DNA from: Psammoneis japonica
Lineage: Eukaryota
Direction of reading: 5' to 3'
NCBI GenBank assembly: GCA_008632985.1
Contig: QPGO01000029.1
Coordinates: forward strand, 124,001 to 188,000
DNA: 64,000 bases
The first letter of the stretch is position 1, and the number at the start of each line of letters is the position of its first letter. Position numbers and translations under genes: made by a program. Positions 10,419-50,469 of the stretch are shown piece by piece. The notes under the pieces are model-generated. The model was not told where the DNA came from. It saw only the letters and a list, made by a program, of their open reading frames with translations, and ran no database searches.

Positions 10419-10769
10419 ATTCCACTATGGTGTACGGTGTACCGGTATCTCTCCTTTGCCGTTCCTTCTGCACGCAACCGCCATGGGACCCTCAATTTTG
10501 TGAAGGGAAGTGAGACGTGAGACATCATTCTCTATTCTACAATATACATATCCATAGCTTTTTATATGCCATCTTGTTGGGTTATCAGCCGGCCTTCGAC
10601 CTGCATCTTCCAATCTCCAGACTCTCTCTCTCTCTCTACCGGCACTGCTCTACTCCAGCCACGACTGGTAGAGGGCCCCTGCTCTCTAGAGCAGCTGCCA
10701 GCTCCGAAGTAAGTAGAGAGTACCTGGTACAGGTAGAGTGGAGCTCTAGAGACGACGAGGAACTCCTCG

Positions 10770-12010
10770 ACCTTGCTTTGCTTTGTTCGCAATGCCACTT
10801 GCAAGAAACCTTTTTCGCCAGCCCCAGAGCTTGCCAGAAGCTCAACAAGAGTCTGGTGTGTGAACTCTCGTCCACCCCAAAATTGTGGCATGAGCATTGC
10901 CTCCAAGCCTTTCTTGATTTGGGATTTTTCCAAAGGAAGTTTGATCCTTGTCTCTCTTTTGCTCTGACCCAGGAGAGACTGTGTGGTGTGGTCATCTGCC
11001 TGAATCGTGACTGTGGGGTCAGCGCCGTGCACCAGTCTGCCATTTTTGATCAAGTCATCCAAGGCCCGCATGAAAGCTTTGCCAAGTTTCTTGGGATGCC
11101 AAGTCTTGGAAGCAGATGAGCAGCAGCACTGTCAAATTGTCTCGCACAAAAGCGCTGCTGGTGCAATGATCAACATGACATCGGCAATGGCTGCTGGCAT
11201 GCCCCAATGGCACCAAGTGATGGCAACAAAGACAAAATGATTGACGGTCAAATTGTGAGCAGAGACAGGGAAGATTTTTGGAGCTGCATTGCCAAGAGGC
11301 CTCACAACAGGAAACATGCAGACAGCAGTGCTGAAACATGGCCCCAGAACGCAACTTGGCTGTGATGACCTTTTCTCAGCAGGCTGTCACAAGCACAATG
11401 CACGAAAGAACAAGAGTTCTCCTCAACTCAGAAACCAGAGCTCTTGATGCATGGGGGGGGGGGGGGGGGGGGGGGGGGNGGGGGGGGCAAGACATTGAGA
11501 TGTCAAAAATTTGGGCTGCAAACCCCCAGCATTTTGTCAACAGCAGCTGCTCAAGCACTTCTTGGTGTGGTGACCCCACTGGCAAGTCTGTGGATCAGTC
11601 TTGGGGCTGCCCTTCCATCGCTGGTGTGCTTTTGCACTTGTCTGCAAACAATCATCATGGCATTGCTTTGGCAGCAAATCAAATTGCAAGACTGCTGCTC
11701 CCAAGCAGTCTCATCATGTTGCTGCTTTCAAAACCCTTGTGTCTGGCACCTTGCTCAAGAGAGCTCACACTGAAGGCATTTGCTTGCCTCCTGCAGACAT
11801 TCTGGATCTTGATGAGTCTGTGGGTTGGCATCAATTTCACCAGCCTCTTCCACCAGCAGCTGGGTTCCAACCCAAACTTGGCCCAGTCCCGTGCTGGCCA
11901 CTTGACCACCCTCTAAACACCTGTCCTTTGGTCCTCTGGAAATGACAGCTCCAGACTGCAATCTCTTGCTTCACTCTCAAAGCTGAGTGACAATGCACCT
12001 CTTTTGCCCT
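10770..12010 (+). mobile_element. Degenerate Ty1/copia RT-RNase H remnant
   Basis: KLNKSL...PKLWHEH...LGFFQRKFDPCL; DPTGKSVDQSWGCPSIAGVLLHLS...IALAANQIAR; PKQSH; SRAGH; CPLVLWK*QLQTAISCFTLKAE match copia motifs (APKLWY, GFxQSxxDPCL, YPSIVGMLLYL, PKQSH, CPLxWKSQLQTxIxxSTxEAEY). Confidence 0.85.
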
Positions 12011-15000
12011 CAGAGGACCTCTGTTGCCTTTGAAAGGAGTGTTTTGAGCAATCTCATGTTGGCCTTTGGTGTTGGAAGTTGTGGCCAGCCATCTGGCTCA
12101 CATTTGGTCTCACCACCACCCCAACTCACTGCGTGGCTTGCAAACACATTCTCACAGTGCCGTTGTCCACTGTTGCCATGTTTGCCAGGTGCAGAAGCTA
12201 AAAAGTGAGCACAAGACCCACCACCCAAACCAAGTTGTGAATGTAAATTTGCCATGTCATCCACAATTGTCAGTGCATCTTACACTGCAGCTCTGTCTGC
12301 CTCTGACCCTGATGTTCCAACATTTGGTGCTTGTCAAGATCTCAACACAACACCTCTGTTTGTCCTCAGGAGTGTTTGAGGACAACCAAGAAGCCCTCTT
12401 TCTTGTGGCTGGCTGCCACATCATCAACCACACCAACACATGTTTTCTGGTCAATTGGAGTTGACTCTGGCCCTGTTGTCACAAATTTTTGGTTGAGGTT
12501 GAGTGTGCAGGACAACTCACAGATTTCTTCTCCAAACCTTTCACTGGAGAGCTCTGCATTGCAGGCAGGAAAAATGCTCAGGCCAGGATGGCAAATTGTT
12601 GCGTGTGTCCATGTTTGTTGGTTGTTTGCCAGCATGCATTGTGGCTCAGGCCAAGATTGGAGGTGCTGCAACCAGGCTTCAAACTTGCTTGTCCCAACTG
12701 GGCTCTTTCTCACAAATTGTTTCAAATTGGCAGATGAGTTGAGGATCATCTGTCCAGCAACCCAGCTTGTTTCCATCTGTTGATGCAAGTTGTTCCCACC
12801 ATCATGTTGGCCCCAACTGCTCCTCTTGGAGCTCAGAGGAGCACAACAACAGCTGTGCATCATGAGTGTCACAAAGCCAGTTTTGGCTCTTCTTGGTGCA
12901 AGGTTGGTCATTGAGAACTTGGCATCTTGCTCCTCCATCATGGTGTCGCAACTTCTCTCTTCCATGCACTGTGAGCTGGACTTGCCCAGCTGCACTCACC
13001 TGATTTTGGCCTGGACAGCTGACAATTGTGGTTGGCCATGTTGTGTGAAGGACCTTCTTTGACCCAATGCTGCGCCATTGTTTGTCAGCAGAGCATCTCC
13101 TTGCACTCCCATCTGATGCACTGACCTGCAATGGAAGTCCAGTCAGTGCTCTGGAGATGGAAAAGGTGTGCAAAGCTCTCTGCTGCACACACCCAGCCCA
13201 CCACAAGCTGCTGTTTTTGCCATCAACAATCAACAGGCACCAGAGCAGCTCAGTCAGCTGGGATGACATTCTGCAACAACTGCCCCATTGCTTGTCAGGA
13301 GAGAACATGTGGCAGAAGAAAGGACACTCAAGATGCTCCCTCTGTGCCACTTTTTACATGATCTTGCCCATGACCCAAACATTGGCCAGCATTGGCAGAA
13401 ATGAAAAATGACAACATGCTGAAATCATGACATTCTTGCTTGCCACTTCTCTGTTGGGCTTGGCATGTAAAACTTGTGGGCATCTGTTTTCTCACCATCA
13501 AGAAGTGGCAGCAGAGCTTCCCAAACATGACTTTGAGTTCAGGCCAGTCTGGTTGTCCATCACAAAGCCTCCCATCTGGAACAAAGTGCATGTCTTCTTC
13601 ACCAAGTTCAACTCATTCTCACTGAAGTGCATGGCTGGAGCTTGACATTTTCATTTCAAAGGAACCACCAAGTGCAGGAGCTGGGTGTGCACTGTTTGTT
13701 TGCCAATGAGTGTCAGCAGCAGGACAGCATCACAGGATTTCTCTTGCATCTCATGTTGGGAGTGGCACTCAACTGAGGATGGTCTTTCTTGCCATCTCAT
13801 GACAACCATGTGAAGAAGCCTTGGAGGGAGCCAACATCCAAATTCAAGAAGGAAGGGGCTGTGCACTCACTGTGTTGCCACCCAAAAACAACATTTTGGC
13901 TGGGGCAGAGATTTCAAGGGTCCATTTTGACAACAACTGTGCCCCCCCTCCTCTGCATTGTGAAATTGGGCAATGCTTGCAAGAAGCAGATGGTTGAGGA
14001 TGACCACCACCTTTCTGAGGAGCTCAGCTCAGGTCACTTCAATTTTTCAGCCATGTCTTTGAAAATGATCCAGGGTGTGATTTGCAAGTTTTTCTCTGTG
14101 ACATTTGGGATGCCACCAGGACATCAGACTGGAGAGGATTGCTGAGTGTGTTTTTGCAGATGAGGTTGCAAGGTGTTTGTGTTCATTCTTCATTTGATGG
14201 GCATCATCCAAGCAGCCCCTTTTCAGCAAAATTGGAGGTGCTGATTGCAGCACTTCTTTGTGAACAAGAGTTTCAAGGCCACATTGATGATTGAACTTAA
14301 AAGCTCACAACTGTTTGACACATGTGCAAACCAAGTTAATTTCTGACACATGTTCTTGCATTTGAAACACTTTGTGACAGAAAGTTCAGATCTGCATCAA
14401 TGCTTGAACTCAGGCTCATGTTGTGGAGTTGCAAATCAAGTCATTTCTGAAGCTCACTGGTGCACAAAAAGAGAGCCCTCTTTTCAATTTAAAACCTGTG
14501 ATGGTTTGAGCTGTTGGTGGAGAGAATTGTTGAAACCAGGTGCAACTTGTCATTTTCTGCAAGAAGACACTCAGAATTTGAGTCAGCAAGCATCCACTGT
14601 CCATTTCATTCTTTTTGAAGATTCAAGATGATCAGAGTCTTTCAAAGTGCACGATGTTGGACAACATTGCCGCTGCCACACCAGTCTTCTCCAACTCATC
14701 ACAAAATCTTTTTCCAACACAAAATTGGGAGCGCCATTTCAGCACGACACCCACTTGTGTCTCACCTCTGCACAAGTCATTCACAGTTGACTTTGGCTTG
14801 GTGCCACAGCCAGTTTTCTGCCCTCCACAGGTGCTGGCCAGAAGACAGTCCAGAGAGCAGACAAGCATTTTTGACTTGTTGGATGGGTTGATGATGCCAC
14901 TGTCTTTCTGGGGCAAAAGATGCACCAGACTGTGGGAACAGACAGATGCTTTGATGAATGACATTGTGCCAACTTTGTTGCTGGAAGCACAGCTGTGGAC

Positions 15001-15430
15001 TGAGAATGACCCCCACAGTTCTCAACTCTGTTTGAAGACATTGCAATGTCCTCCACACAAATTCACGTTCTTGTGCCATCTCGGGTCTCTGTTGGGAGAG
15101 CCTGCAGAAGAAGCCAAGTGGCATGTACTTGGGCTGTTTTGCAGGGATGCCTGCCAGTGATTTTTCACAAGAAGGAGTGGTCAAATTGAAATGTTTGAAG
15201 AGCACCACAATCAATGGTCTCTTTCTGAAGATGCATTGCTTCCTTTCTTTTCACTGGATCGGCACCCTCCACCGCAGCCACAGCATGTCTGAACCCATTG
15301 TGGGGTGTTCCCCGGTTCTTGCCACAACTCGACTTCAGCTTCCACTGGACTGTGCGGTCTTCCACTTACCAAGTTTGTCAGTCTGGAACAACATCACACT
15401 GTCAGCATCCGTGACGGTGCCAGAGACTCT
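12010..15430. mobile_element. Unidentified degenerate (probably transposon-derived) sequence, TpA- and CpG-depleted
   Basis: Same composition as the adjacent copia remnant, fragmented coding-like frames, no motif I can assign. Confidence 0.5.
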
Positions 15431-36364: not shown

Positions 36365-36849
36365 CAAATTCCGAGTAATGGAGAAGAGAGAGTTGCCAGT
36401 GCCACACAGTAATGCACACGCAGTGCAATCGTAGGTCAAGCCACAGTTGGAGTCCATTCTTTTGGCGCTACAGCTAGCGATTTACCCGCTGATGCCTAGT
36501 AGATAGCTAAATCGCTAGTAACTGATGCCAAACTCCACAAACTGAAATGCATTTGAGGCACATAGCATATGACCCATTGCCAATGTCATCCAATAAGATG
36601 CTTCGTCTCGAAGTCGCACTCTAGAGCTGTCTTTCTCTAGTCACAAGGCTGTGTTTAAAGGGACAGTGATTCAAAACAAACATTTTAGAATTTTGGGGAG
36701 GAGTTCAAAGCGCTTATGACGCCATCTCCACTGCATCCACCTCGCTCTATTCTACTTTAGTGGGTCGGGCTGGCTGACTGGCCGGCCGGACCTTGCGGGT
36801 CCTCACAAAAGCGCGCTCGACTGTCCTCAATGTCACAGTAGACTAAGAC

Positions 36850-38963
36850 GCTCACAAGAGCAAATGGTCTGCGCAAGCAAGGACGCTTGCCCTCACTCTT
36901 GCCATGTGTGCAGCAACTGACAAAGAAATGGAACTTGGTGGCCAGGGGCCAAAGAAGCCAAAGGCAGGTGCATGTGGGTGCTGAAGCACTGCCCAGATGC
37001 AAAAGTCTCTGCTGGGAAAGAGCCATTGAGTGCACAATCCTTGCACCACAAGTGCACATTGAGGCTGCAAGCTGCAGCAGCAGTTGCTTTTGTGAAAAGA
37101 CGGTCTCTGTGAAGCTTGGGATCAAGTGCTCCATTGACACACAAGCTGTCTCATCATGTGCTCGGGTGAGGATGATCCAAAGCATCATTTGGACAGCTGC
37201 AGGTGTCAAGAACAAGGCAGCAAAGTGAGCACGTGGGACAACTGCCAACTCCTTGCTGCTGCAAGGAGCAATTCTTTGAGAAGAGGGTCGTGGCACCAAA
37301 GATCAGCTGGAGCAGCACCTTTTGGGCAAAAATTGTCTCAAAAAGACAGTCAACACAGCCATTGTCAAGCCCATTGTCAGGCAACTGTGCTTGGCTGACT
37401 GGAAGATGAGAACAGGGTGGGACAAATGGAGCAGCACATGAAGAGTTCACCAGAAAGGAGCTGTCATCACCTCAACACCCAAGTGAGAGGTTGGTGCAGC
37501 AAGCCAGCCAAGGTGGGCAAAACATTTTTGAGAGATCCCCTTTCAGAGTGTGTGTGTGGGGGGGGGGGGGGAATCCAAGAAGCAGTGCTCAAGACACATG
37601 GTGCCCTGAAAAGTTCAAGCAGTGCTGGGGTTGTTAATCTGGTCTTGCTGAGTGGTGGGAGTCTCCTCTGCAACTGGCAAGGAAGATTGTTTGGAACACT
37701 TGGATCAGCCAAACACTCTGGATGACAAAAAGGAAATTGGTTGTGGCCATGAAGAGCATGTGCCTCCTCCTTTGGAACATTTCCTGCCAATGATGGAGAG
37801 CACCTCCTGCTGTTGACACCAGCCCAGGATGCAAAGCAAGCTGCCGGTCATTCAATCTTTGCACTTGAAGCTGCTGATGAGCTTGTTGCAGCTCGGTCCA
37901 TTTCAGGCAGTGTGGAGCAAATCATCTTGCTGATGCATGCAGTGGTGGATGAAGAAGAAACTCTGACAAGAGCACCGCCAGGTGGTGCTCTCCATTTCAT
38001 GAGACAGCTCAGCAAAACTCAATCTTCATCTGTGCTGGCTGCAACAACAAAGAAGAAGTTGCTGCACAGTGCACTGATGAGAGACGGGAAGTCATGAGAG
38101 CAAGCAGTTGGCAACAGCTTCAGCTGTGTTGCTGAACAAGTTTGGAGAACTGTGCCATGTCTCAAGGTTGTTTGCACCAGTTGAGTCAAAGTCACAATCA
38201 AGCTTTTTCAACACCACAAGGTTGACTCAAAAACTCAGAAGTCTTGCTGCTTGACTTGCAGACCAAAGAGGAGCCAGCCCTGGTCAAGTGCTTGAAGCTT
38301 TGTCAAGAAAGGCCAAGCCATCAGAACCATGAGGTGTGTTGTTCTCTGTGCTCTTGTTCTGGGTGCATGTTGACAAGCCAAGAAAGACCAACAAAGAGAC
38401 AAGGGCAGATGGGTCATCATTTCAAAGCCACAATGGGGCATCATTGGTCAAGTGTCCAATCATGGCCAGCATGCTTGGCTTCAGCTCTTTTGAGTTGCCA
38501 CCACAGGCAAAGTTGGTGTGCATCAGAGAAATCCACCAACCCCCAGGTTCCCAAAGATGCATCATTGCAAGACACACTTCTTTGGCTGACACAAAATGTG
38601 GGCCACACTGAAGAACAATCCATGGAAGCTTGAAATGTGCTGGCTGAGAGAATGCCCCCCTTTTGGTGTTGCACTTGTTGTGCAGCACATTGTGATGAGA
38701 GACAACTTGCTTGGAAAGCCACACACAAAAAGGGCTGAAAAGCCATCATCATGATTCATGGCATGTTTGGTGGACTTGGACCCAGTCACCTCTTGCACAT
38801 GATGCTGCCAGCTCTTTCTTTTGCAAGCTGCTCGGGGTGCTGCTCAGTGAAAGATTCATTCAGACAGCCACTCTTTGAGTGCAAGAGAAACATTTCAAAT
38901 GATGTGTGAGATTTAGAGTTGAGGCTTTGTGAAGGTTCTGTCTCTCAGCTGGCAAGGGCCAAC
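36850..38963. mobile_element. Unidentified degenerate TpA-depleted repeat-derived sequence
   Basis: Compositional continuity with the copia element to the right; no assignable motif. Confidence 0.45.
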
Positions 38964-39387
38964 TGTTGGAACATCTAGAAGATGGGCAATTCCAGGAGCC
39001 CAGACATGTTGAAGAGAAAATGTTGTTGCTCCTGACATGGAGGATTCAGCGACTCTTTGTGATTGAAATTTCATCATCATTGATCTCTCTTGCCTTTCTG
39101 TTTGTCTCACTCTTTGGAGCAAATCATTTGGTTTGTTTGGTTTGCATGATTTTGTTGCATTGGTGGTGCCACTGGGTGTCTGTCATGTTGCAGGTGTGAA
39201 GTTTGCACTGACAACTTCTGGGCAACACACAGCTGCTGCAAGCAGCCAAAGCAAGAATGACAAGCAGCACAGGAAGTCTCACAGGATTCCCTTTTGGTGA
39301 CATTAACTTGCTGGCTCAATGTTGACTCCAAAGAGTGAGAAGCACTGCATTTGGTGCTTGACAACACTGTTCTAACTGCAGTCAACA
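38964..39387 (+). repeat. Putative 5' LTR (right boundary approximate)
   Basis: Starts TGTTGGA; first ~310 bp align by eye to 48227-48530; candidate end ...gtcaaca. Confidence 0.65.
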
Positions 39388-40399
39388 GATTGCAGAGTGC
39401 CTGCACAATGAGAGGCAGAGGAAGTGGCAGATCTGACAACCAAGGCTGAGGATGCAGTCACAGAAGAGGTGACAAGAGTTCTGGGTTCTCTGGTCTGAAG
39501 AAGAGGACCATTGCTGAGAAGCACTTTCAGCCTGAGATGAAGTTCCATCCTTCATCACTGAACAGCAACTCTTGCAAGAATGCAACATGCAAAGACATCA
39601 AGGAGAAGATCACACAACACACACAGAAAGAGGGTGCTCAAGATGTGCATTTGAAAAGATCCACAGAAGACATGAAATGCAATGTCTTCAGTTCTGAGAA
39701 GCCAAAGTCAGGTGCAGCCACAATGACCTTGCAAAGCAAGGGAGATGGAAACTGTCAGTTAGAGCTGGAAAAGAGATGACAAGAGGAAAAAAAGCTGGAG
39801 CACCAGTGCAAGGGGAGCTTCATGAGCACACAATGACAAAGTGAGGCAGTTCAAAGAGAACAAGGCTGCTGCATGCACCAAGATCCCAGACATTTGCTGC
39901 ACCAAGCTGACAAAGAAGAGGGAGTGCAAGGCAATCTCACTTGTGCAAGCATTGGCGACAATCTGATCAAGCCACTGAAGCTGCTGATCCAGTCACTTGC
40001 ACTTGACACCCATCACACACACTTGCCAAGTCTCTGCAAAATGGGCTGGATGAAAACAGCAAGAAAATGAGTTGCTGAACAACTGCCTGTCAAGATTCAA
40101 GAATCAACAAGATGTTGCAAGTGAAGGTCTTTTGGGAACAAGATGCCAGATGGATTCATTTCCCACACCAAGGAGCACAAGAACAGCATTGTGGTGAAGA
40201 AGCAAGTGCTGAAAAATGCAGTGTTTGAGAAATGGACAACATTCCTTGTTCACAAAGAACAGCAACCCTTGACAAAACAGTGGATGCTGAGTCATCTGAA
40301 AGACAACATCCCTCATGAGGGACATGACAAGAGGAACAACAACAGCAATGATGAGAACAAAAACAAGAGGTCCAACCATGCAAAGGACTGGATCTGCAC

Positions 40400-43130
40400 C
40401 CAAAAGGGCAATCAGAGTGACACCACAGTTTGTGCTGCTGTTGCAGTGAACTGAGTCACAAGTCCCCAGACTGCAAGCTTCAAAATGACATTGCATCTGA
40501 CAACTGATTTAAGAATGTTGAGTCCAGCCTCAAGTTTGTGCTGCTGAACTGCACAGCCCTGGTCAATGTTGAAAGTTTTACACAAATGGCAACCACCTTG
40601 CCTGCAGGAGGTTCCATCATCATTGCTGGTTTGACCATGCTTTTTTGCATCTAGGGCAAAATTTGGAAAGACAAAGGATGGAAATGCTGCGCAAGCAGAT
40701 GTTGACATTTCTTGTTGCACACAAGAGGCTGCTCCCACATTGTGTTTGTGGCTTTGCAAGCACACAGAACAGGTGTTGCAAGGGTTCAAGGATGAACACA
40801 TTGGGGTGGAAAATGTGGGCCGCTGCTTCCAAAACTGCACCCGCCAGGTTGAACACCATTTTGCACCCCTCCTGAGAAAGAAAGTGAGGAGCATTCTCAT
40901 GAACAAGCATTTGAGTTTAGCCAGCAAATGAACAGGAGTCACTTCCCCATGCATTGGCAGCACCACAATTTGGAGACTTTGGAGTGTGGCATTGAAGAAA
41001 CACTTCCTGGTGGCAGCCCGCCATTTGGCCATTACCTCGACATTTTTGAGCTGACATGCTTTGATCTGGTGGCAGCCAAAGTTCTCTGCAAGGATGCCAA
41101 AGAACTCTTGAATGATTTTGATGCAAAAATTTGCAAAGTTTCCTGGGGTGGCCAGAGATTCTCCATCCCAGATTCTCACAACACCTTCCATGGGTGCTCG
41201 ATGCTAGAGAACCCCAGCGGCAGCTTCAAGAAAATTGTTTGGAACTCATCGTAGATGCCCATGCTCGGATGGATGGATGGATGGCGCCGTGATGATCGAG
41301 ATTTTCCTTGTTTCTCAGAGTTGTGGCGTTCACGTCATTGACGCTCCGCCCGATTTGCTGATTGGTGGATCTGATTCGTTGGACATGCCAGACGACTTTC
41401 AACAATGGCTGGAAGGATCTGAGAAACAAGTGAAGATGGAGAAAAGGTTCCAGGACGCCACAGTGTGCTGTTTGTGCTTTCTCCGGCCTCTCAAGATCCC
41501 AGACAAGAAGCTGGATGAAATGAGCCGCATTCCTGTCGGCTGATTTATGATGCAGCAACTGCAAAAGCATCCTTTCAAATGCTCTCAATTTGATGAATGC
41601 CGAGCTTACACACAGCTGTCGTTTGGTCCTCGTCAACAGCTGGAGAGGCCGCATTCTTGACTCTGCTCTGGAACTGCATGCACTTGAGCGCAGGTGTGGA
41701 CGCGTTGTGCAGCTGCAACAGAAGAAGTGGTGCACGCGGCAATGCCCGTGGGCTTTTTCCTTTTGGTCCCAACATTCTGCGACGAGGTGGGATGAAAGAA
41801 TCCCACATCCCACGCATCACTTGAGCAACAGGGAAAACACCAAGTGCAGGGAGCCCCGAAGTGCCCCTCATCTCAACCATGGATGCTGCAGCTAAAACAA
41901 GAAGGTGAAAGTGTCATGACCGGGGCTGTCAATTTAAGTGCTCGCAGCAGGTTCGACAGAGCTGCAAGTGGTCGACATGTGCGAAATCAGCAGCTGCACA
42001 AGTGAAATCACTTGCAGCCAGCACGTTTCTTGCAATTGAGACAACCCTGCTCATGGCACTTTTGTTGACTCCAATGTTTGCCCTTCATGTGCTGCAGACC
42101 GCCCATGCCTCGAATGGGATCCTTGGCGCAATTGCAACATGACAACCAGTCAATGTCTGCGGAATCCCAAATGTCGCCCACGCAGCAAGCCTGTCCTTCC
42201 GTTTTCCTTTGTTCCTCTTGCAGCATTTGCATGGTTGGAGGCCAGGCAGTTTGGCCCATCCAATGCGACGTGTCCACGGGTGCGCAACAAAAATGGCAAG
42301 ACATTGTTGTTTCGACCTGGGCTCTGACGGATGTTCTCAAGCAACAACTTTCTCTTGTCCTCTGACAGCAAGCGAAATGTTTGTCGCTGGTTGTGTGACG
42401 GAGCATGTGTGAGCCCATCATGCTCATCGGCTGTCGCAACTTGCATGCCGCCTGCAGAGGCGGGGCCTCAGTTCTTCATTTTCATTGGCTGCTGAAAAAT
42501 TCGGCGCGGCACAGCAGAGCTGTAGATCCCTCAACCTCTCGTTGTGGATGAAGTTTGTGTTTTTGTGATTTGAACTTTTGCAATTTGAAATCGATCGGAA
42601 GGATCTCTCGATCTCAACCTTTTTGCCACCAATCCTCGATCTGACATCTGACAGCATCTTCCTCTTGTTTTTCCTGCTCTCGCTCTCCACGCCACCATCA
42701 TGACAAGTTCTTTCCAGTCATCCAACTGGTCTCGCATTGCAGCACAAACAGCCTTGTTGCTGTCTTGTTTGTTGTCATTGGCAATGTGCCCACATTCCAA
42801 AGTGGAAGAATCCTTTCTGTTCCAAGCATTGCATGACTTTGTTTTGACTTGCTGCATTTTTTTGGCATTTCCCAGTTCACCCGCACGCTGTGCGGCAGGC
42901 AGAACCCAGCGCCATCGCCCATCCAACGCAACAACTCGGTCGTCGTCGCATCCATCGTGGCGTCCCTTGGGAGGTTCCCCCGTCAACCTTCCACTGCTTG
43001 TGCACGAGTCGTCACACACAAAAACGACATGTCAACACCTTGTCAGTGGACAGCAACAGTGCCCATGTGTCGACGCCACCAGATCCAATTGATCAGCACG
43101 TTCCAGCTGAAGCAGGAGTGCTGCATGGCA
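40400..43130. mobile_element. Unidentified insertion between gag and pol; much of it CpG-retaining but TpA-depleted
   Basis: Interrupts the copia polyprotein order; abrupt rise in CpG from ~41200 to ~43100. Boundaries approximate. Confidence 0.5.
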
Positions 43131-43139
43131 TGGATTGCA

Positions 43140-46100
43140 ACTGGCAAATGAAAGGTCAGAGATGATGAGCATGAACCAAGCCAAAAAAAAAGACACTGGC
43201 GTGGTGGATGAGATCAACCTTGACATTGGCTCTGCCCCCAGCATGGCAGCAAGCCAGACATGTGTGCACAATGTGCGGCCAGCAAAAATCAAGATTAATC
43301 TGTTCACAAACACAGGAATGGTTGTCCCAGATGAAGACCGCACCACATGCCTGAATGGGAAGGATGTGAAGCTTGGATTGCAAAATGTGACAGCAAACAT
43401 CCTCAGTTTCAAGGACATGAAGAGCAAGTGCAGTGTCACATGCGACAACTGGGCAGCGGATGAGCAAACAAGCTGTGGTGTTCAAAGTCAACAACACATT
43501 GGCGCCAAGCCAGAAGTTCTCTGACATGCAAAAGATCTCAAAGAAAGAAGCAAGTCATGTGCTGGCATGCTGTCAAAGAAGAAGGGGGGGGGGGGGGGGG
43601 GGGGAGGAGGTGGTGGTGAGTGCTGCTGAGCAAGTGCTCAGATTGCACCATGAAGCTGGAATTCCCAGAGTGAGAGATTTCAAGCTGTTTTTACAATTAA
43701 ACCAGGTGATGAAGAACTTGTCCATCTTGCCTGAAAATGTGAACAGGATGGTGGCCATGTTTGGGGAACATCTGCAGATGTGCTGAAAAAGGGAAGTTCA
43801 AATGTGCACGTTGGTCCCATCAGAGAAATGACATTGTTGCTGTTCCACCCAAGACACACAAGAAACAGAAAGAAGGTGTGATCCTCTGCATTGATGCTGC
43901 AGAAGCATGCAGAGTGAAGATGCTGTGTGCAATTGACAAGATGATCAAGTGTCAGTCAAGTGTGAGATTGCAATCCAAGAAGCACATTGACACACACAAT
44001 GCATTGGACATGACACTGTGCCAGTGCAACACAGCTTTGTTGAACAATGACTTCATTGAGTGTGAGGATCCCCAGTTCAAAAACATGTTGGTGGAAGTCA
44101 CAGATGGCATGAACCCAGAGCCAACATTTGCAAACAATGGCAACCATGTTTTCTGTGAAGTTGGGTGTGGAGCATTGAGACCATCAAGGAGCAAGCTCAC
44201 GTCCATGCACACCACCTGTGCCACACAAAATGACACCCAAGTTGATGTGCAAGCATGCCATGATCAAGAACACTGTGATGGCAAACATGTGCCCACAGCA
44301 GGAAAGAATTTCTGACATGTGCAGTCCATGACACACTGCTGTGCAACAAAAAAACCTTGACTGTGACAAGCACTTTGTGCTCACCTTTGGCTCATTTGTC
44401 CCATCTCACATTGAAAACAACCCAACAAACACCATGGACACACATGGGGCATTGACAGCACATGCCTGCAACCATGTTTTGACATTCCCAAGGTGGTCAC
44501 TGCACTGTGAACCTGCATGCATGGAAGCTGTTGAACCCCTGCAAGTGTGCTGCCTGTGCCCCTGACCAACACACATGCACCAAAGCAGTTGAGAAGACAG
44601 CCTCAGCACAAGGCATCAAAGGCTTTGAATTTGTGGGCAAGTGTGGAGACAACCTGCGCGAGGCAGGTTGGATGGCAGGAGTTGACAATGACGACAGCAA
44701 CAGCAACAGCAAAGACAAAAGCAAGGATGAAAACAAAAATGAGCACAACAATTAAGAATGGAAGGGCTGTGAAGACAAACCTGACCCAGATGATGAACAT
44801 GAAAAAGCCAATGAGATCTGGCAGGCACAAGATCCAGCCCCAATGAACAGCACAATGACCATGAAGATGATGAACAAGAAGACTGCAAACAAGACAAAGA
44901 GTCAGAAGAAGGCAAAGTGTCCACAGATGAGAAAAGCAGAGAAGCAAAACTGACAGATGAGGTGGGAAAGATGCCAGGCACAGTGACAAAGAGTGGCGCA
45001 AGGTTCAGTGCATCCCACAATGCAGGGTCACATGAGCACAGAAAAAAGAAAGTTCAGTTTGCAATGAGAGCGGCAGAGATGAAGAAGTGGAGCAAGAGCA
45101 GAACAAGCTCAAGCACTGCCATTGCTTGAGAACAAACATTGGCCCCAATCCAGAAACTGACGTTGAACATCACACAGAAACAGGAACGGTGCTGGCACAA
45201 TTCATGTGTGAGATCAATGACCAACTCTGATCAGGAAAGGGCACTTCCTTTGCCCAATGGCATTTGCTGCATGAAGGCCTGAAGCATTCAGCCAGAGGGG
45301 GCATGGTGCCTTGCCAGAGAAGGAGATGAAACAGTTCCATGACAGAGCATGCTTTGTGCCAATGTCAATCAAAGACATGACTCTGGTTGAGAGGACCAAG
45401 GCCATGGTTGTTCTGACATTTCCAACAGAGAAGCAAGACAGTCACCTGAGAGGGCAAATGGTCTGCAATGGAAAACCAAACAAAGAATGACTGGACAAGG
45501 ACAAATCAGCTGGCCCGACAGCATCATTGGAAGGAATGCTGATCACAGCTTTTGTTGATGCCAAAGAGTGTGACGTGATGAGAGCCAATGTGCCAAATGT
45601 GCTCACATGCAGACATGGAGCCAAAGGAAGGCAAAGACCAGCTCATGATGAAGATTGCAGGAGTGTTGGTCGACGTGCTTGTGAGCATGATCCCAACCTG
45701 TGGCACGGTCATGGAGAAGGAGAAGAGAAGTCTCCATGTCCAAAGCTGTGCAAGGCACACCAAACATGGCTCCACTGTTGTGTGAGCATGTTTCACAAGG
45801 ACTTGGAGAAGATTGGGTTTAAGCTTGACCCATGTGATCTGTGCATTGCCAGTCAGTCAGGAGTGTCAATGGCAAGCAGCACACTGTTTGTTTCCATGCA
45901 GATGATCTGTTGTCAAGCCACAAAAAACAAAAATCAAACAACAAATTTTTGAGTTGGCTGAACAAGATGCATGGAAGCCACATGGTGAAGTTGCACAGCA
46001 ACATGAGAGAAGAAGCATGGCTGCCTCAGCATGACCCTGGACTTCAGCCACAAGAGCAAGGTGAAGGTTGACATGACTGAGTGCACTCACAAGATGTTTC

Positions 46101-46860
46101 ATCAGTTTCTGGACAAGATCAAGAGCACAGACACTGCCATGGCACCATCAGGGAAAACCTGTTTGATGCTGGTGGTGCCAGATTGCCAGCCAAGAAAGCA
46201 AAGACATTCCATGCAGCATGGGTGGCCAAGGGACTGTTTGCATCCAAGAAAGGCCACTTGGATGAGCACCCCACCATTGCAGAGTTGTGTGTGCAAGTCA
46301 GGCAGGCAGACAACAAGGATTGGGGAAAGCCACTCTGTTGTCTCAACTTTTTGAGCTGGACACAAAACAAAGTTGCTGCATTGAGCACAAAGGACCTCCA
46401 AGTTGTCAAATGGCATGTGGATGCATGATTTGCAGTGCACCCAGATTTCAAGAGCCACACGACAGGATTTGTGACTGTGGGCAATGGAGCAGCAAGCAAG
46501 CTGTGTTCAAGCAACAAAAGCTCAACACCCAAAGCAGCACCAAAGCTGAGCCAGTGATGACACAATGACCACCATGGCATTGCAGATGAAGTTGTTTATG
46601 GAGCACCAAGGCCATCCAAATGACAAGAACATCCAGCATCAGGACAACAAGAGCACCATGCTGTTGGTGACCAGTGGGCACAGGAGGGCGGAAAACACTC
46701 CAGAGCACTTGATGCTCAGCATTTTTTCATTGCTGATCAGATCAAGAAGGCAATCTTAGAGTGCAGTGTTGTCTCTCTGATGAAATGCTCAGAGACTTCA
46801 TGATTGAGCCACTGCAGGGCAAGAAATGTCAAAAATTCAAATGAGCTGTTTTGTGGGGTG
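43140..46860 (+). pseudogene. Copia pol pseudogene (protease end, integrase, RT, RNase H)
   Basis: ANILSFKDMKSKCSVTCD, LHHEAGIPRVRDFK, FGSFV..H.ENNPTNTM, EMKQFHDRACFVP, TEKQD, VCNGKP, PTASLEG, GFKLDPCDLC, GKQHTVCFHADDL, KWHVDA*FAVHPDFKSHT, QGHP...HQDNKS. Confidence 0.9.
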
Positions 46861-46885
46861 TCAACTTCAAGTGTGACAGGAGTGT

Positions 46886-48218
46886 TTCCTGTTTCTGACT
46901 GACAAGAATTCTGATGCATGTGGATGAAAGAACCCTGCAACCCCCAGAAGATGTGGCGAACCACATGTTTTTTTAGAGCAAGCATGATGTTGATGACCAT
47001 GATTGCTGGCTGTGTGCAAGGGAGCTGCCAGGGCACATCAACAAAATCCTTGAGCCAAATGATGCAATTGATGGCCATGACATTGTTGGGATGTGGAGTT
47101 TAAAAGTCAGATGGATTGCCGGACAAGAAGAGGAAGAAATTCCAGGAAGATGACTGCTGTCAAAAGGCACTGGAAGAATGTGACAAGTGGATGAAGTGTG
47201 GACACTCCTGACTGCCTCAAGACCCACCACGTTTTCACAAAGAAGCAACCAATGTGGGTCTTTTGATGATTGAGTTCAACAAGGACACGAGGATGCCCAC
47301 CTGGAGCATTCTCAGTGCATGAATGGTGGAACAAAACAAGAAGAAATTTGTGGAAATGTGGCATGAGCTGTGGACAGCAAGAAGGCACAATCTCATGTGA
47401 GATGTGCATGCTCAAATGGACAGGGTGGCCTGACAAAGTGTGTCGGTGCATGTCCGCTGCCACATGCTGATGATCTCCCTGTTTGACATTGCAGGAAATC
47501 ACACAAGTGCCAACAAGGGAGGGAAGCACACAAGACCAAAGAATGTTGGCAATTGTTGAAGGCCAAGCCTGGGTGCAAGACAAGGGACAGCACCACAAGG
47601 AATTGCATCATGACAAGCATTCCAACAAGTGTGGAAGAAACAACAATCATGGGATCAAGAGGCAATGAATTTTTAGACAAGCATGGTGTCAACCATCTGA
47701 GTGGACTGTCATCAGTGGGTTGTTCCACCTGTGGCATGGGCTTCTGTGGGGGACATGTGGCCTCTCTTGTGGAGTGTGGCACCAACTGACCCAGAGAGAG
47801 CAAAATGTGGTGATTTGGATTGGTGGTGTGAGGCAACAATGGTGTCATGCATGATGCTTTGAAGTTGGCATGATTCTTCCAACATGACATTGTTGAAGCA
47901 AAGCCTGAAGCACAGTGGGCCTGTCATGACATGGAGCTCTTTTAGCCATGCTCATGGACAATCATGATTGGGTCATGCACCCAATCAGCCAAACAGCAAG
48001 GCTGCAATGGAAAGGACTCATCACACTCATGTGAAACATTCAGTGGATCAAGCAAGCAAGATCACAAATGCATTTGATCATCTGCTTGATTTCCATTGTT
48101 GCAAACCAGGACAGTCACTCACTGTCTGTGATCTTGTGGCAGACACACCAGAAGAAAGTGCCAAGCTGGCATGCTTTGACAAAGTTGGGCAGTGGCAGAA
48201 AGTTGATGTGAGCTGCAG
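46886..48218. mobile_element. Nested ~1.3-kb insertion at the PPT/3' LTR junction
   Basis: Flanked by near-identical 9-mers caggagtgt (46877-46885) and caagagtgt (48219-48227). Confidence 0.5.
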
Positions 48219-48226
48219 CAAGAGTG

Positions 48227-48530
48227 TGTTGGAACAAACAGAAGATGGGAAATTTTAAGAACCCAGAAGTGTCAAAGAGAAGACAGCGTTGCTCCTGATG
48301 TGGAGGATTGGGCAGCTGCTTGCATTTGAAACTTCATTGTCGCCAATCTCTCTTGCGCCTTTCTGTTCATCTCATTCTCAAGCTTTGGAGTGAATCATTT
48401 GTTTTTGCCATTTTTTTGCACTGGTGCCACTGGGTGTCTGTGGCATTGCAAGTTTGTGTCAACAACTTCCAGGCAACCCAAACAGCCAATGCAAGCAGCC
48501 AAGACAAGCATGACAAACAGCAAAGAAAGC
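48227..48530 (+). repeat. Putative 3' LTR (apparently truncated)
   Basis: tgttggaaca...gaagatggg...gttgctcctga...tggaggatt...ggtgccactgggtgtctgt...acaacttc...gcaagcagccaa shared with 38964-39275. Confidence 0.75.
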
Positions 48531-49301
48531 CCGCTGCACACTGCAGAAAGTGATGCCCTGCCAATGTTGAGAAAGCTGCAGCAACCACTGGAGAAGCAGC
48601 AAAAGACACAAAGCTCTGGGAAGCATTGAAGTGCAAAACATGTGAGAGCACTCAAAAGAGCTCCCACCCACTCTGCCTCAAATGGCGCCTCTGCACTGGC
48701 AAAAGACACCACAAGAGCCAGCTGAGTTTGAGGATGAACTGTTCTTGTCTCTGCACCTCCATGATGGCAAGGCGCTCAAGTCACTTGCAGCCAAAGCAGA
48801 GGCTTTCAAGGCAGAAGCTCTGCTGCACAAGTGTGCGCGGCTGCTCCCGAAAGAACTGCTGCCATGTGGTGAGTGTGCACACTTGCAAACAACGTTGTCC
48901 ATGGTGGCATTTGCTCCACTCCATTGTCAACAACACCTGTTTCCTGTGATTCATCCTCACCAACAACTGACAGGCTTCATTTCTGCCAACAAGAAGTGGG
49001 GCCATGGCCAAACATGGAGTGTCTCTGAAGAAGAGTGCGACGACCCCCAGCAGGGAGTGGCTCTCCGCGTGCTTTTGGGGCACGCAACACGCAACGAAGG
49101 CTGCCATGAAGTGGTGGCGCACAAGCTTTGTTTTAGGTTGATGTCCGCCTTTCTTTCCTTCTCTCTTCTTCTTTTCTCTTTCTTCCCTTCTCTTCCTTCC
49201 CGCCCTCCTTTACAGCATGTCTCTATCTGCTTCCGCCCCTGACACCTGACGCCTCTCTCCGCACATCGCGCGCATCCACGGAATTGTTGCCTTCGGCCGC
49301 A

Positions 49302-49329
49302 GTCGTCGGTCGTCGGTCGTCGGTCGTCG
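49302..49329. repeat. (GTCGTCG)4 tandem repeat upstream of GNAT gene
   Basis: gtcgtcggtcgtcggtcgtcggtcgtcg. Confidence 0.9.
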
Positions 49330-49383
49330 TCTTCGGTGCAGTTTTTTACTTTTGCTCCTTTCCAACTTCGACCAGGGTCGCCC

Positions 49384-50469
49384 ATGACGATGACGACGTT
49401 GCCAACAGGAGCAATAGCAGCGGGTCATTCACGTTCATGGTACTGGCTAGTAATTGTTCTAACTGTTGTGCATAAGACGCAGAGTAGCGCTTTTTATGGT
49501 TTTAAACAGAGATGCTCGTTTGTGACACCAAGAAAAGTACCTGCTGCAATTCGAGTCAAAAAGGGTTCTTTTTCTCGAACGTTTCTCTTTTTTCGCACTG
49601 TGGATCCACCAAGACCAAAGACGCCGTGGAAAATTCCGGAAAAAGCTAAAGAAGAGCTGCAATCAGGAAAAGTAAATCTTCCATACACATTTAAACTTGG
49701 TTACGACGATGGGGAATCTGCAGCATCTGCTGACTCGGCAACTCTGAATAGCACGGAGAGAATACTGACTGTACGGTATTTAGAGACTGAAGATATCGCC
49801 TCCATTCTTCCAATGTGCGTGACCGAATTCGGGCCAGGCCAAACCGCTCAATTAGGGGATTTTCCGTGGGAGGATTTGACATCAACAAACGTGAAGGATT
49901 GGTGGGAGCGATTCGCCTTTGTAAGGCTTCTTGCACTTGCAATGCGACTCAAGATTCAACGGCGAAAAGACGGAAATAATCCTTCCAACCCTGCCAAACC
50001 AGATGATAACATTCTGTGTCTGCAGCAAGATGATAAAGTTGTCGGTATGGTAGAATTGAGCTTGGAACCGCCGTTTGCAGAACGCAACCCGCCACCATGG
50101 CCGATTCCAATGTTTCTCAAGGAGCTCTTTTGCGAACAAAAGGGTATCCCCCCACCGGATGGTTGGATAACAAACTTGCTTATCGATGACCGATATAGAC
50201 AATTGGGGTATGGGAAAGTTCTAATGTGGGCAGCGGAAGGGCTGGCTCTTTCATGGGGCTGCAATTCAATATATTTGCATACTGTAGCCGACAGCATCGG
50301 TGGAGCGATACCTCAGGCCCTGTATCGTGGTCTTAACTACGAGCCGGTAGTAGATCAACAGTCGGCCCAGAAGTTCGCTTGGATGGGTCCCGAGATGCTG
50401 AATTCTGGGCTGTACATTGTGGAAGGCGTACCGCTGTTGTTCCTGCAAAAGCGTTTGAATGCATCGTAG
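49384..50469 (+). CDS. GNAT-family acetyltransferase, probable plastid presequence
   Basis: VVGMVEL, WITNLLIDDRYRQLGYGKVLM (motif A), IYLH, ALYRGLNY; signal ending SSA-F. Confidence 0.85.
   Translation: MTMTTLPTGAIAAGHSRSWYWLVIVLTVVHKTQSSAFYGFKQRCSFVTPRKVPAAIRVKKGSFSRTFLFFRTVDPPRPKTPWKIPEKAKEELQSGKVNLPYTFKLGYDDGESAASADSATLNSTERILTVRYLETEDIASILPMCVTEFGPGQTAQLGDFPWEDLTSTNVKDWWERFAFVRLLALAMRLKIQRRKDGNNPSNPAKPDDNILCLQQDDKVVGMVELSLEPPFAERNPPPWPIPMFLKELFCEQKGIPPPDGWITNLLIDDRYRQLGYGKVLMWAAEGLALSWGCNSIYLHTVADSIGGAIPQALYRGLNYEPVVDQQSAQKFAWMGPEMLNSGLYIVEGVPLLFLQKRLNAS

Follow-up and report, generated by a model that had tools for sequence, protein, structure and literature searches.

In a 64,000-nucleotide stretch of the alga Psammoneis japonica (assembly GCA_008632985.1, contig QPGO01000029.1, positions 124,001 to 188,000 of the forward strand; referred to as the window and numbered from its first letter), a non-coding segment of 1902 bp at 41199–43100 contains 88 CpG and only 7 TpA, and lies within the relic of a Ty1/copia retrotransposon from which both dinucleotides are almost absent. 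The TpA-poor, CpG-rich state of this segment is real and far above chance; the erasure of TpA and the decay of CpG are separable, and the former is independent of the latter. An explanation by two mutational processes, combined with a later arrival of the segment in the copia element, is preferred here with a modest leaning in its favor.

An exact count over 41200–43100 gave 7 TpA (observed/expected ratio, o/e, 0.06; positions 41205, 41252, 41546, 41607, 41893, 41935 and 42523, with a TpA-free gap of 587 bp between the last two) and 87 CpG (o/e 0.70). The preliminary description of this DNA, made by eye, had spoken of plentiful CpG, of about seven TpA with none from ~41940 to ~42520, and of flanks that lack both dinucleotides; all of this agrees with the counts (CpG o/e 0.07 and 0.11, TpA o/e 0.04 and 0.03 in the two flanks), and the three CpG-rich strings that it quoted were located in the sequence. 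Background windows of 1901 bp (n = 416) contained 41–112 TpA (median 74) and 73–150 CpG, windows of the same length inside the depleted blocks described below (n = 67) contained 1–8 TpA and 2–13 CpG; the TpA count of the segment is therefore of the block type and its CpG count of the background type. Mononucleotide shuffles of the segment (n = 2000) yielded 112 TpA on average and never fewer than 76. The ratio of CG to TA was 88:7 in 41199–43100 compared with 49:23 in the 9935 bp of flanks (Fisher p = 6.7e-5) and 2521:1835 in the 46808 bp of background (p = 1.1e-13 versus the segment). Expressed per kb relative to background, the segment has retained 86% of CpG and 9% of TpA, the flanks 9% and 6%, respectively; the CpG loss of the segment thus amounts to ~14% per kb (26% if judged by o/e). 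Both CpG change points are abrupt, at 41199 (support 41016–41218) and at 43100 (support 43075–43201). The G+C content of the segment is 0.51 versus 0.475 in the background, and each of its six frames is interrupted by 10–17 stops.

The background DNA, which makes up 46.8 kb of the window, has a CpG o/e of 0.95, a TpA o/e of 0.57 and the G+C content of 0.475; the long open reading frames (ORFs) of the window match prephenate dehydratase, CCB2/CCB4, NOP9, an MFS transporter and others, and the window has the appearance of nuclear DNA from an intron-poor, photosynthetic eukaryote. Tyrosine is normally represented in the host ORFs outside the blocks (3.1% of 3426 codons), and in the host genes of the window CGN triplets account for 72% of the arginine codons, CGA being the commonest. 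Two gene-free blocks are almost devoid of TpA, block A at 10748–15367 and block B at 36845–49134/49415, and CpG is also gone from most of each. Block B, which harbors the segment, contains 30 TpA in 12.3 kb (36845–49134; ~2.4 per kb versus 39 per kb in the background), its TpA change points being placed at 36845 (support 36845–36887) and 49415 (support 49106–49441). Across these two change points and those of block A (10748 and 15367) the TpA density falls from 37–52 per kb outside to 1.4–3.8 per kb inside. The corresponding CpG change points are at 11183 and 15260 (block A) and at 36885 and 49038 (block B): at each of the four block edges the CpG boundary coincides with the TpA boundary or is nested within it, the distances being 435, 107, 40 and 377 bp in the order of the sequence, and the TpA erasure therefore extends slightly farther out than the CpG decay. 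Block A gave no copia profile match at an independent E-value (iE) below 1, and no Pfam match for the two of its ORFs that were tried.

In the host copia element the loss of TpA is shown by its paired repeats and its coding remnants to be mutational, with TpA converted to TpG or CpA. The two long terminal repeat (LTR)-like sequences that flank the element differ at 66 of 278 aligned positions; 50 of the mismatches are transitions, and 33 fall in exchanges of one pyrimidine-purine (YR) dinucleotide for another, including 14 CA/TG doublets. Approximately 13 such doublets would be expected if the TA and CG sites (~26 in 278 bp at background frequencies) had been converted independently in each copy, compared with ~7.5 if CpG alone had been converted. 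The coding remnants show the same: not one of 30 profile-consensus tyrosines is kept in the copia relic (9 are replaced by cysteine, 4 by histidine), compared with 13 of 27 consensus phenylalanines and 12 of 19 consensus histidines. The doubt raised in the preliminary description, that pristine copies might be natively free of TpA, is ruled out for the host copia by these doublets and tyrosine losses. For the segment itself, a mutational loss of TpA is suggested by a mass balance, in which the predicted TG+CA is the sum of background, missing TA and missing CG, a background-like ancestor being assumed: 98.2 TG+CA per kb were observed and 94.7 predicted, versus 72.7 in the background. The same calculation gave 116.1 observed and 115.6 predicted for the flanks in block B, and 112.9 and 116.2, respectively, for block A. 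The TpA-poor state of the segment is, moreover, common to its unrelated neighbors and ends at the block edges rather than at element edges. A tetranucleotide-context test of mutational origin was uninformative for the segment (log-likelihoods, lnL, of −514.1 versus −513.1).

The statement of the preliminary description that the TpA loss is not a by-product of CpG deamination is well founded: TpA has disappeared where CpG is retained to ~86% per kb, and the base changes required are different, TpA loss proceeding by A:T>G:C and CpG decay by C>T. The relative speed of the two processes is a more conditional matter. If first-order decay from a background-like start is assumed, the segment has −ln(retained) values of 2.37 (TpA) and 0.15 (CpG), and the copia element values of 2.83 and 2.39 (both saturated); the ratio of TpA to CpG loss in the segment is then near 16 per kb, or ~7 by o/e, provided that both processes have acted equally on the segment since its arrival. 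On this premise TpA erasure would be faster than CpG decay. Residual TpA is more frequent in the DNA lodged within the copia element (12 in the 2506 bp of 40505–43010) than elsewhere in the block (18 in 9783 bp; binomial p = 0.011), and most of it is found in 40505–41940 (11 in 1436 bp, p = 3.6e-4, ~4 times the rest of the block, with boundaries chosen post hoc). This TpA-richer zone straddles the CpG boundary at 41199, so that the TpA and CpG states are offset from one another at the sub-kb scale.

The flanks of the segment, already called copia DNA in the preliminary description, are identified by homology as a dead Ty1/copia element on the + strand, with an RVT_2-type reverse transcriptase and the integrase upstream of it. 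A phmmer search of 1.84 billion representative proteins with the read-through of 45200–47200 yielded 739 matches at E ≤ 1e-3; of the long matches scanned, 10 of 10 contained RVT_2 (PF07727) at E ≤ 1e-5, and 7 of 10 reached the Pfam cut-off of 31.6 bits. A local profile built from 11 long relatives (1624 positions) maps colinearly on the + strand from 39697 to 46853, up to profile position 1566, i.e. from gag to RNase H. The gag relic, which ends in a zinc knuckle, was located at 39697–40504 by two weak colinear matches (39697–40191, iE 0.17, and 40322–40504, iE 0.068; profile positions 17–177 and 234–288), and a separate gag profile from 5 relatives matched the zinc knuckle region at 40286–40495 (iE 0.0047). 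The zinc knuckle CCCCSELSHKSPDC at 40433–40474 is the sole CX2CX4HX4C motif in the six frames of the block (1 in 24798 residues). The protease, integrase, reverse transcriptase and RNase H relic at 43190–46853, supported by both profile and phmmer matches, is heavily mutated, with 42–46 stops in each + frame: the protease-domain alignment extends over 43012–43452 (E 1e-6) and is reliable from ~43190, integrase pieces were found at 43607–44442, and reverse transcriptase and RNase H at 44684–46853 (best 7e-37). The LTR-like direct repeats, 38964–39276 on the 5′ side and 48227–48529 on the 3′ side, both on the + strand, are 70.6% identical over 323 bp and form the only internal repeat of the window; they are the single direct repeat pair around the element, and their ends and a target-site duplication could not be fixed. 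Comparison of the block with the window by self-BLAST and tblastx returned nothing besides this pair. Pfam searches with six-frame read-throughs (X at stops) were negative for the right flank (E ≤ 0.1), for 45200–47200 (E ≤ 10) and for the left flank (E ≤ 0.01), and 14 ORFs gave chance-level matches only. No profile match was obtained for the ~1.4 kb that separate the RNase H homology from the 3′ LTR-like repeat (46853–48227); they may represent a lineage-specific tail or a further lodged piece. Inside the copia relic, 21 consecutive G are found at 43584–43604, and a similar G-rich run, which includes the single N of the window (11479), at ~11452–11491 in block A; the two match one another in tblastx.

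The copia element is interrupted between gag and protease. Between the last cysteine of the zinc knuckle and the LD motif of the protease there are 44 positions in the gag profile of the relatives, compared with 2744 bp in the window (40474 to 43219, where the protease motif reads LDIGS), and ~2.6 kb of extra DNA is therefore lodged at this point, which, as it interrupts the copia element, is younger than the copia insertion. Compositional change points that are independent of CG and TA were found at ~40430 (A and T at 40430, purine at 40420) and at ~43010 (A 43010, purine 43020, T 42880), and none at 41199. By profile and composition together, the lodged DNA seems to extend from ~40430–40505 to ~43010–43190. 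The claim of a nested insertion in the preliminary description is thus upheld as regards the interruption of the copia element by ~2.6 kb of foreign DNA, and has to be modified in that the CpG-rich tract is not coextensive with the lodged DNA. Between gag and the tract, 0.7 kb at 40505–41198 are poor in both CpG and TpA and have no copia profile match; they belong to the lodged DNA as its left part, or else represent an older insertion. Two adjoining pieces of different age or one unevenly decayed insert may be present. On the right side, copia protease DNA on the + strand at 43101–43503 forms a shoulder of intermediate CpG density (6 CpG in 403 bp, compared with a maximum of 5 in any 400-bp window deep in the copia element).

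As to the content of the lodged DNA, no copia profile signal was obtained on either strand. Pfam searches with the segment gave no match at E ≤ 0.01 for the six-frame read-throughs and none at E ≤ 10 for the minus frames; a search for homologous proteins with frame −1 of the segment, at near and shorter lengths, was negative, Rfam gave no match in the segment, and the tandem repeat search revealed nothing relevant to it. Two candidates were dropped: a Harbinger-type transposase, guessed by eye, received no support from the Pfam read-throughs, and a fragment of a second copia element, indicated by minus-strand tblastn matches (E 0.17–5), was unconfirmed by the profile search. The longest ORF of block B (259 aa, 40412–41191, minus strand) is antisense to the end of gag and stops at the CpG boundary; neither a Pfam match nor a homologue was obtained for it, and it is probably a chance ORF.

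Evidence from other elements bears on the speed of the TpA loss. Ten of 150 public copia relatives contain less than 0.5% tyrosine. The relative P0006, an open ORF of 541 aa, keeps 1 of 17 consensus tyrosines (6 replaced by cysteine, 8 by histidine) and 16 of 21 consensus arginines, compared with 16–18 arginines kept of 23–28 in six longer controls (566–711 aa). In P0008, 0 of 8 tyrosines and 5 of 6 arginines are kept; P0005 appears half-converted (6 of 21 tyrosines kept, 10 replaced by cysteine or histidine), and in P0067, an open copia relative in a cluster of 12, nearly all consensus tyrosines are lost to cysteine or histidine, with arginine retained. The tyrosine-poor open relatives therefore point to TpA erasure of copia elements in other assemblies too, and, given the share of CGN among the arginine codons of the host genes, CpG decay should break such open frames quickly. 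The higher residual TpA of the lodged DNA, the nested CpG boundaries and these tyrosine-less open relatives together point to a later arrival of the segment and to a TpA process that is faster or burst-like.

According to the explanation preferred here, the 12.3-kb block would be a putative silent island around a dead Ty1/copia element, in which gag and protease are separated by ~2.6 kb of foreign non-coding DNA. One process, a TpA-specific A:T>G:C mutation that turns TA into TG or CA depending on the strand struck, would have acted over the whole island, the lodged DNA included, and a few hundred bases past the CpG-poor zone at its edges, and would have removed ~91–94% of the TpA throughout; its chemistry would most likely be the deamination of adenine in TpA. 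The other, the decay of CpG to TpG/CpA, presumably by deamination of 5-methylcytosine, would have removed ~91% of the CpG of the copia element and ~14% per kb of that of the segment. The segment would have kept its CpG because it arrived after the copia element and because TpA erasure outpaces CpG decay by an order of magnitude, or proceeds in bursts. The dinucleotide counts and their boundaries, the identity and interruption of the copia element and the mutational loss of its TpA are shown by the sequence, and a mutational loss in the segment, the relative youth of the segment as the reason for its CpG, the enzyme and the methylation state are inferred; that youth and a faster TpA process explain the kept CpG is a proposition for which we see the chances as evenly balanced. 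Of the overall reading in the preliminary description, the copia flanks, the interruption and the independence from CpG deamination have stood, the equation of the CpG-rich tract with the insertion has not, and "faster" is adopted in the conditional sense given above.

Several observations weigh against this explanation. The CpG-rich tract is offset from the lodged DNA, its left end lying 0.7 kb inside it, and the left 694 bp of the lodged DNA (40505–41198) are CpG-poor, with 5 CpG and also 5 TpA. Both shoulders of the tract taken together hold 10 CpG in 803 bp compared with 30 in 8276 bp of deep copia (Poisson 8.8e-4, an anti-conservative test, as the CpG density of deep copia is uneven, with 11 CpG in 44657–45706), and the youth of an insert does not explain CpG kept in the older copia flank. 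The stops in every frame of the segment offer no mark of recent arrival; terminal repeats, termini and a target-site duplication of the lodged DNA were not found, the matches obtained being short and of chance size. No second copy of the segment was detected by self-BLAST of the window or in protein and metagenome scans (in the latter, none of the 127 stretches that matched a protein query from the segment was confirmed, and a 30-letter YR-degenerate DNA pattern had 0 matches); the segment thus has no before/after pair, and the mass balance presumes its background-like ancestor. The gag matches to the left of the lodged DNA are weak (iE 0.0047 to 0.17), and relatives of the P0006 type are known from protein sequences alone (Logan, ENA and JGI assemblies).

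The offset and the shoulders fit a different cause at least as well as youth: 41199–43100 might be an unmethylated island with shores of ~0.4 kb in an otherwise methylated silent block, in which case the two processes would still be uncoupled and the segment would give no measure of their relative speed. Such a protected patch would account for a CpG tract that begins 0.7 kb inside the lodged DNA and extends beyond its right end, and for a CpG density that climbs toward the tract from both sides (CpG at 40690, 40821, 40842, 41019 and 41038 on the left, and from 43200 to 43503 on the right), the right shoulder lying in copia protease DNA and exceeding every deep 400-bp window; a positional effect of that kind does exist, as CpG is kept without TpA at the four block edges. 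However, the CpG level changes abruptly at both ends of the tract (support ≤ 200 bp), in contrast to block A, whose left edge is a broad gradient (10817–11427), nothing that would account for an unmethylated island (gene, promoter, RNA family or open frame) came to light, and the uneven CpG of deep copia makes the shoulder test anti-conservative; we consider a protected patch possible, though on balance unlikely. That the lodged DNA came from a TpA-avoiding source or family and has undergone no erasure at all is very improbable. The missing before/after pair and the tetranucleotide test leave room for such a native composition, but the excess of TG+CA equals the missing TA and CG, the TpA density of the segment is the same as in the unrelated copia, the LTR-like repeats and the surrounding relics, the TpA-free state ends with the block and not with an element, the G+C of 0.51 versus 0.475 is as ~57 changes of TA to TG/CA would give, and the same state was demonstrably acquired in the host copia. 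It is hardly credible, finally, that 40505–43190 is not an insertion but an unusually long native part of the copia element, either a gag-protease linker or an extra ORF: the lack of recognizable termini and of a target-site duplication would agree with this, and the linker does vary in length among relatives (P0055 has ~60 extra residues); against it stand the 44 profile positions of the relatives compared with 2744 bp in the window, the shifts in A, T and purine content at ~40430 and ~43010, the pyrimidine-rich 42000–42950 in an element that is purine-rich on the + strand, and the absence of a frame open across 40505–43190.

Repeat-induced point mutation (RIP) of ascomycetes is a C:G>T:A mutation, mostly at CpA, with an AT-rich product; its dinucleotide-specific transitions disable transposons and stop at domain edges. 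The pattern described here is similar in that dinucleotide-specific transitions occur throughout repeated or silent DNA, and differs in that TpA is destroyed, TG and CA are created, and G+C is raised. RIP acts on duplicated sequence; within the window the segment occurs only once. RIP creates TpA (RIPCAL, PMC2621366) and thus runs in the opposite direction to the pattern seen here, the TpA o/e being 0.03–0.06, the CA/TG o/e 1.6–2.1 and the G+C content of the segment 0.51 versus 0.475. A single description of TpA-specific hypermutation was located in print by full-text searches, for integrated giant-virus and virophage DNA of Bigelowiella natans (Mettrop et al., bioRxiv 10.64898/2026.01.13.699255), and no diatom paper on TpA loss was found. 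According to that preprint, A>G and T>C changes made up 230 of the 231 new mutations recorded in two integrated viral regions, all GC-biased ones were located on TpA, the mutation rate was greatly raised in some of the lines only, and an adenine deaminase was proposed, with an ADAT2/3-type candidate; the preprint makes no mention of CpG (0 occurrences) or of diatoms. The likeness extends to the restriction to TpA>TpG/CpA, the bounded silent foreign DNA, the low TpA combined with raised CpA+TpG, the direction against a GC>AT bias, and an adenine-deaminase chemistry, which is proposed there and presumed here; in P. japonica, the change of TpA to TpG/CpA in the host copia, the bounded and putatively silent regions, and the untouched neighboring genes are the corresponding features. 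The differences are that new mutations were measured there in mutation-accumulation lines, whereas the process is deduced here from sequence; that the targets are viral integrations in a chlorarachniophyte, compared with a copia relic, the DNA lodged in it and other relics; that the erasure is incomplete there (Rho TpA 0.45 for the giant-virus region), compared with 91–94% here; and that a second, separable CpG decay is superimposed here.

CpG decay as known from methylated transposons is represented in the copia flanks by the CpG o/e of 0.07–0.11 (CpG retained 0.09) with a matching gain of TG/CA (116.1 versus 115.6 predicted per kb), as DNA methylated over a long time would be expected to show; the segment differs, as it escapes this decay (CpG retained 0.86 per kb) and yet shares the TpA loss. 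Diatom Ty1/copia LTR retrotransposons carry the family name CoDi. Methylation of diatom transposons has been treated by Hoguin et al. 2023 (PMC9998398) and Maumus et al. 2009 (PMC2806351), whose pertinent passages concern CpG methylation only. The host element resembles the diatom Ty1/copia elements (Maumus et al. 2009, PMC2806351) in the order gag, protease, integrase, reverse transcriptase and RNase H, in its RVT_2-type reverse transcriptase and in its flanking direct repeats, and differs in being dead, in having no tyrosine at consensus positions, and in the separation of gag from protease by 2.6 kb of foreign DNA.

The contribution of this window is a piece of topologically younger DNA that is TpA-erased yet CpG-rich, with the reservation that the borders of the CpG-rich tract and of the insertion differ: a segment depleted of TpA but rich in CpG, inside DNA depleted of both, is a natural test piece. 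If TpA erasure is separate from CpG decay and faster, the retention of TpA would provide a short-range clock of transposon age, and that of CpG a long-range one. The mutator would then not be a side effect of cytosine methylation, and the search for its enzyme would have to turn to adenine deaminases or to a TA-specific repair error. In its widest form, which we put forward tentatively and with slightly less than even confidence, the interpretation is that this alga possesses a TpA-specific mutator, probably an adenine deaminase, that acts over whole chromatin domains and turns TA into TG/CA in silenced mobile DNA ~10 times faster than methylated CpG decays, and does so whether or not the CpGs decay. 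Every tyrosine codon would be changed to cysteine or histidine first, with the frames still open, and the result would be a fast and irreversible genome defence, opposite in direction to fungal RIP and common to at least one distant alga. In print so far, such a process concerns only integrated viruses in one chlorarachniophyte; were it to act on retrotransposons in an unrelated alga as well, it would rank as a widespread defence.

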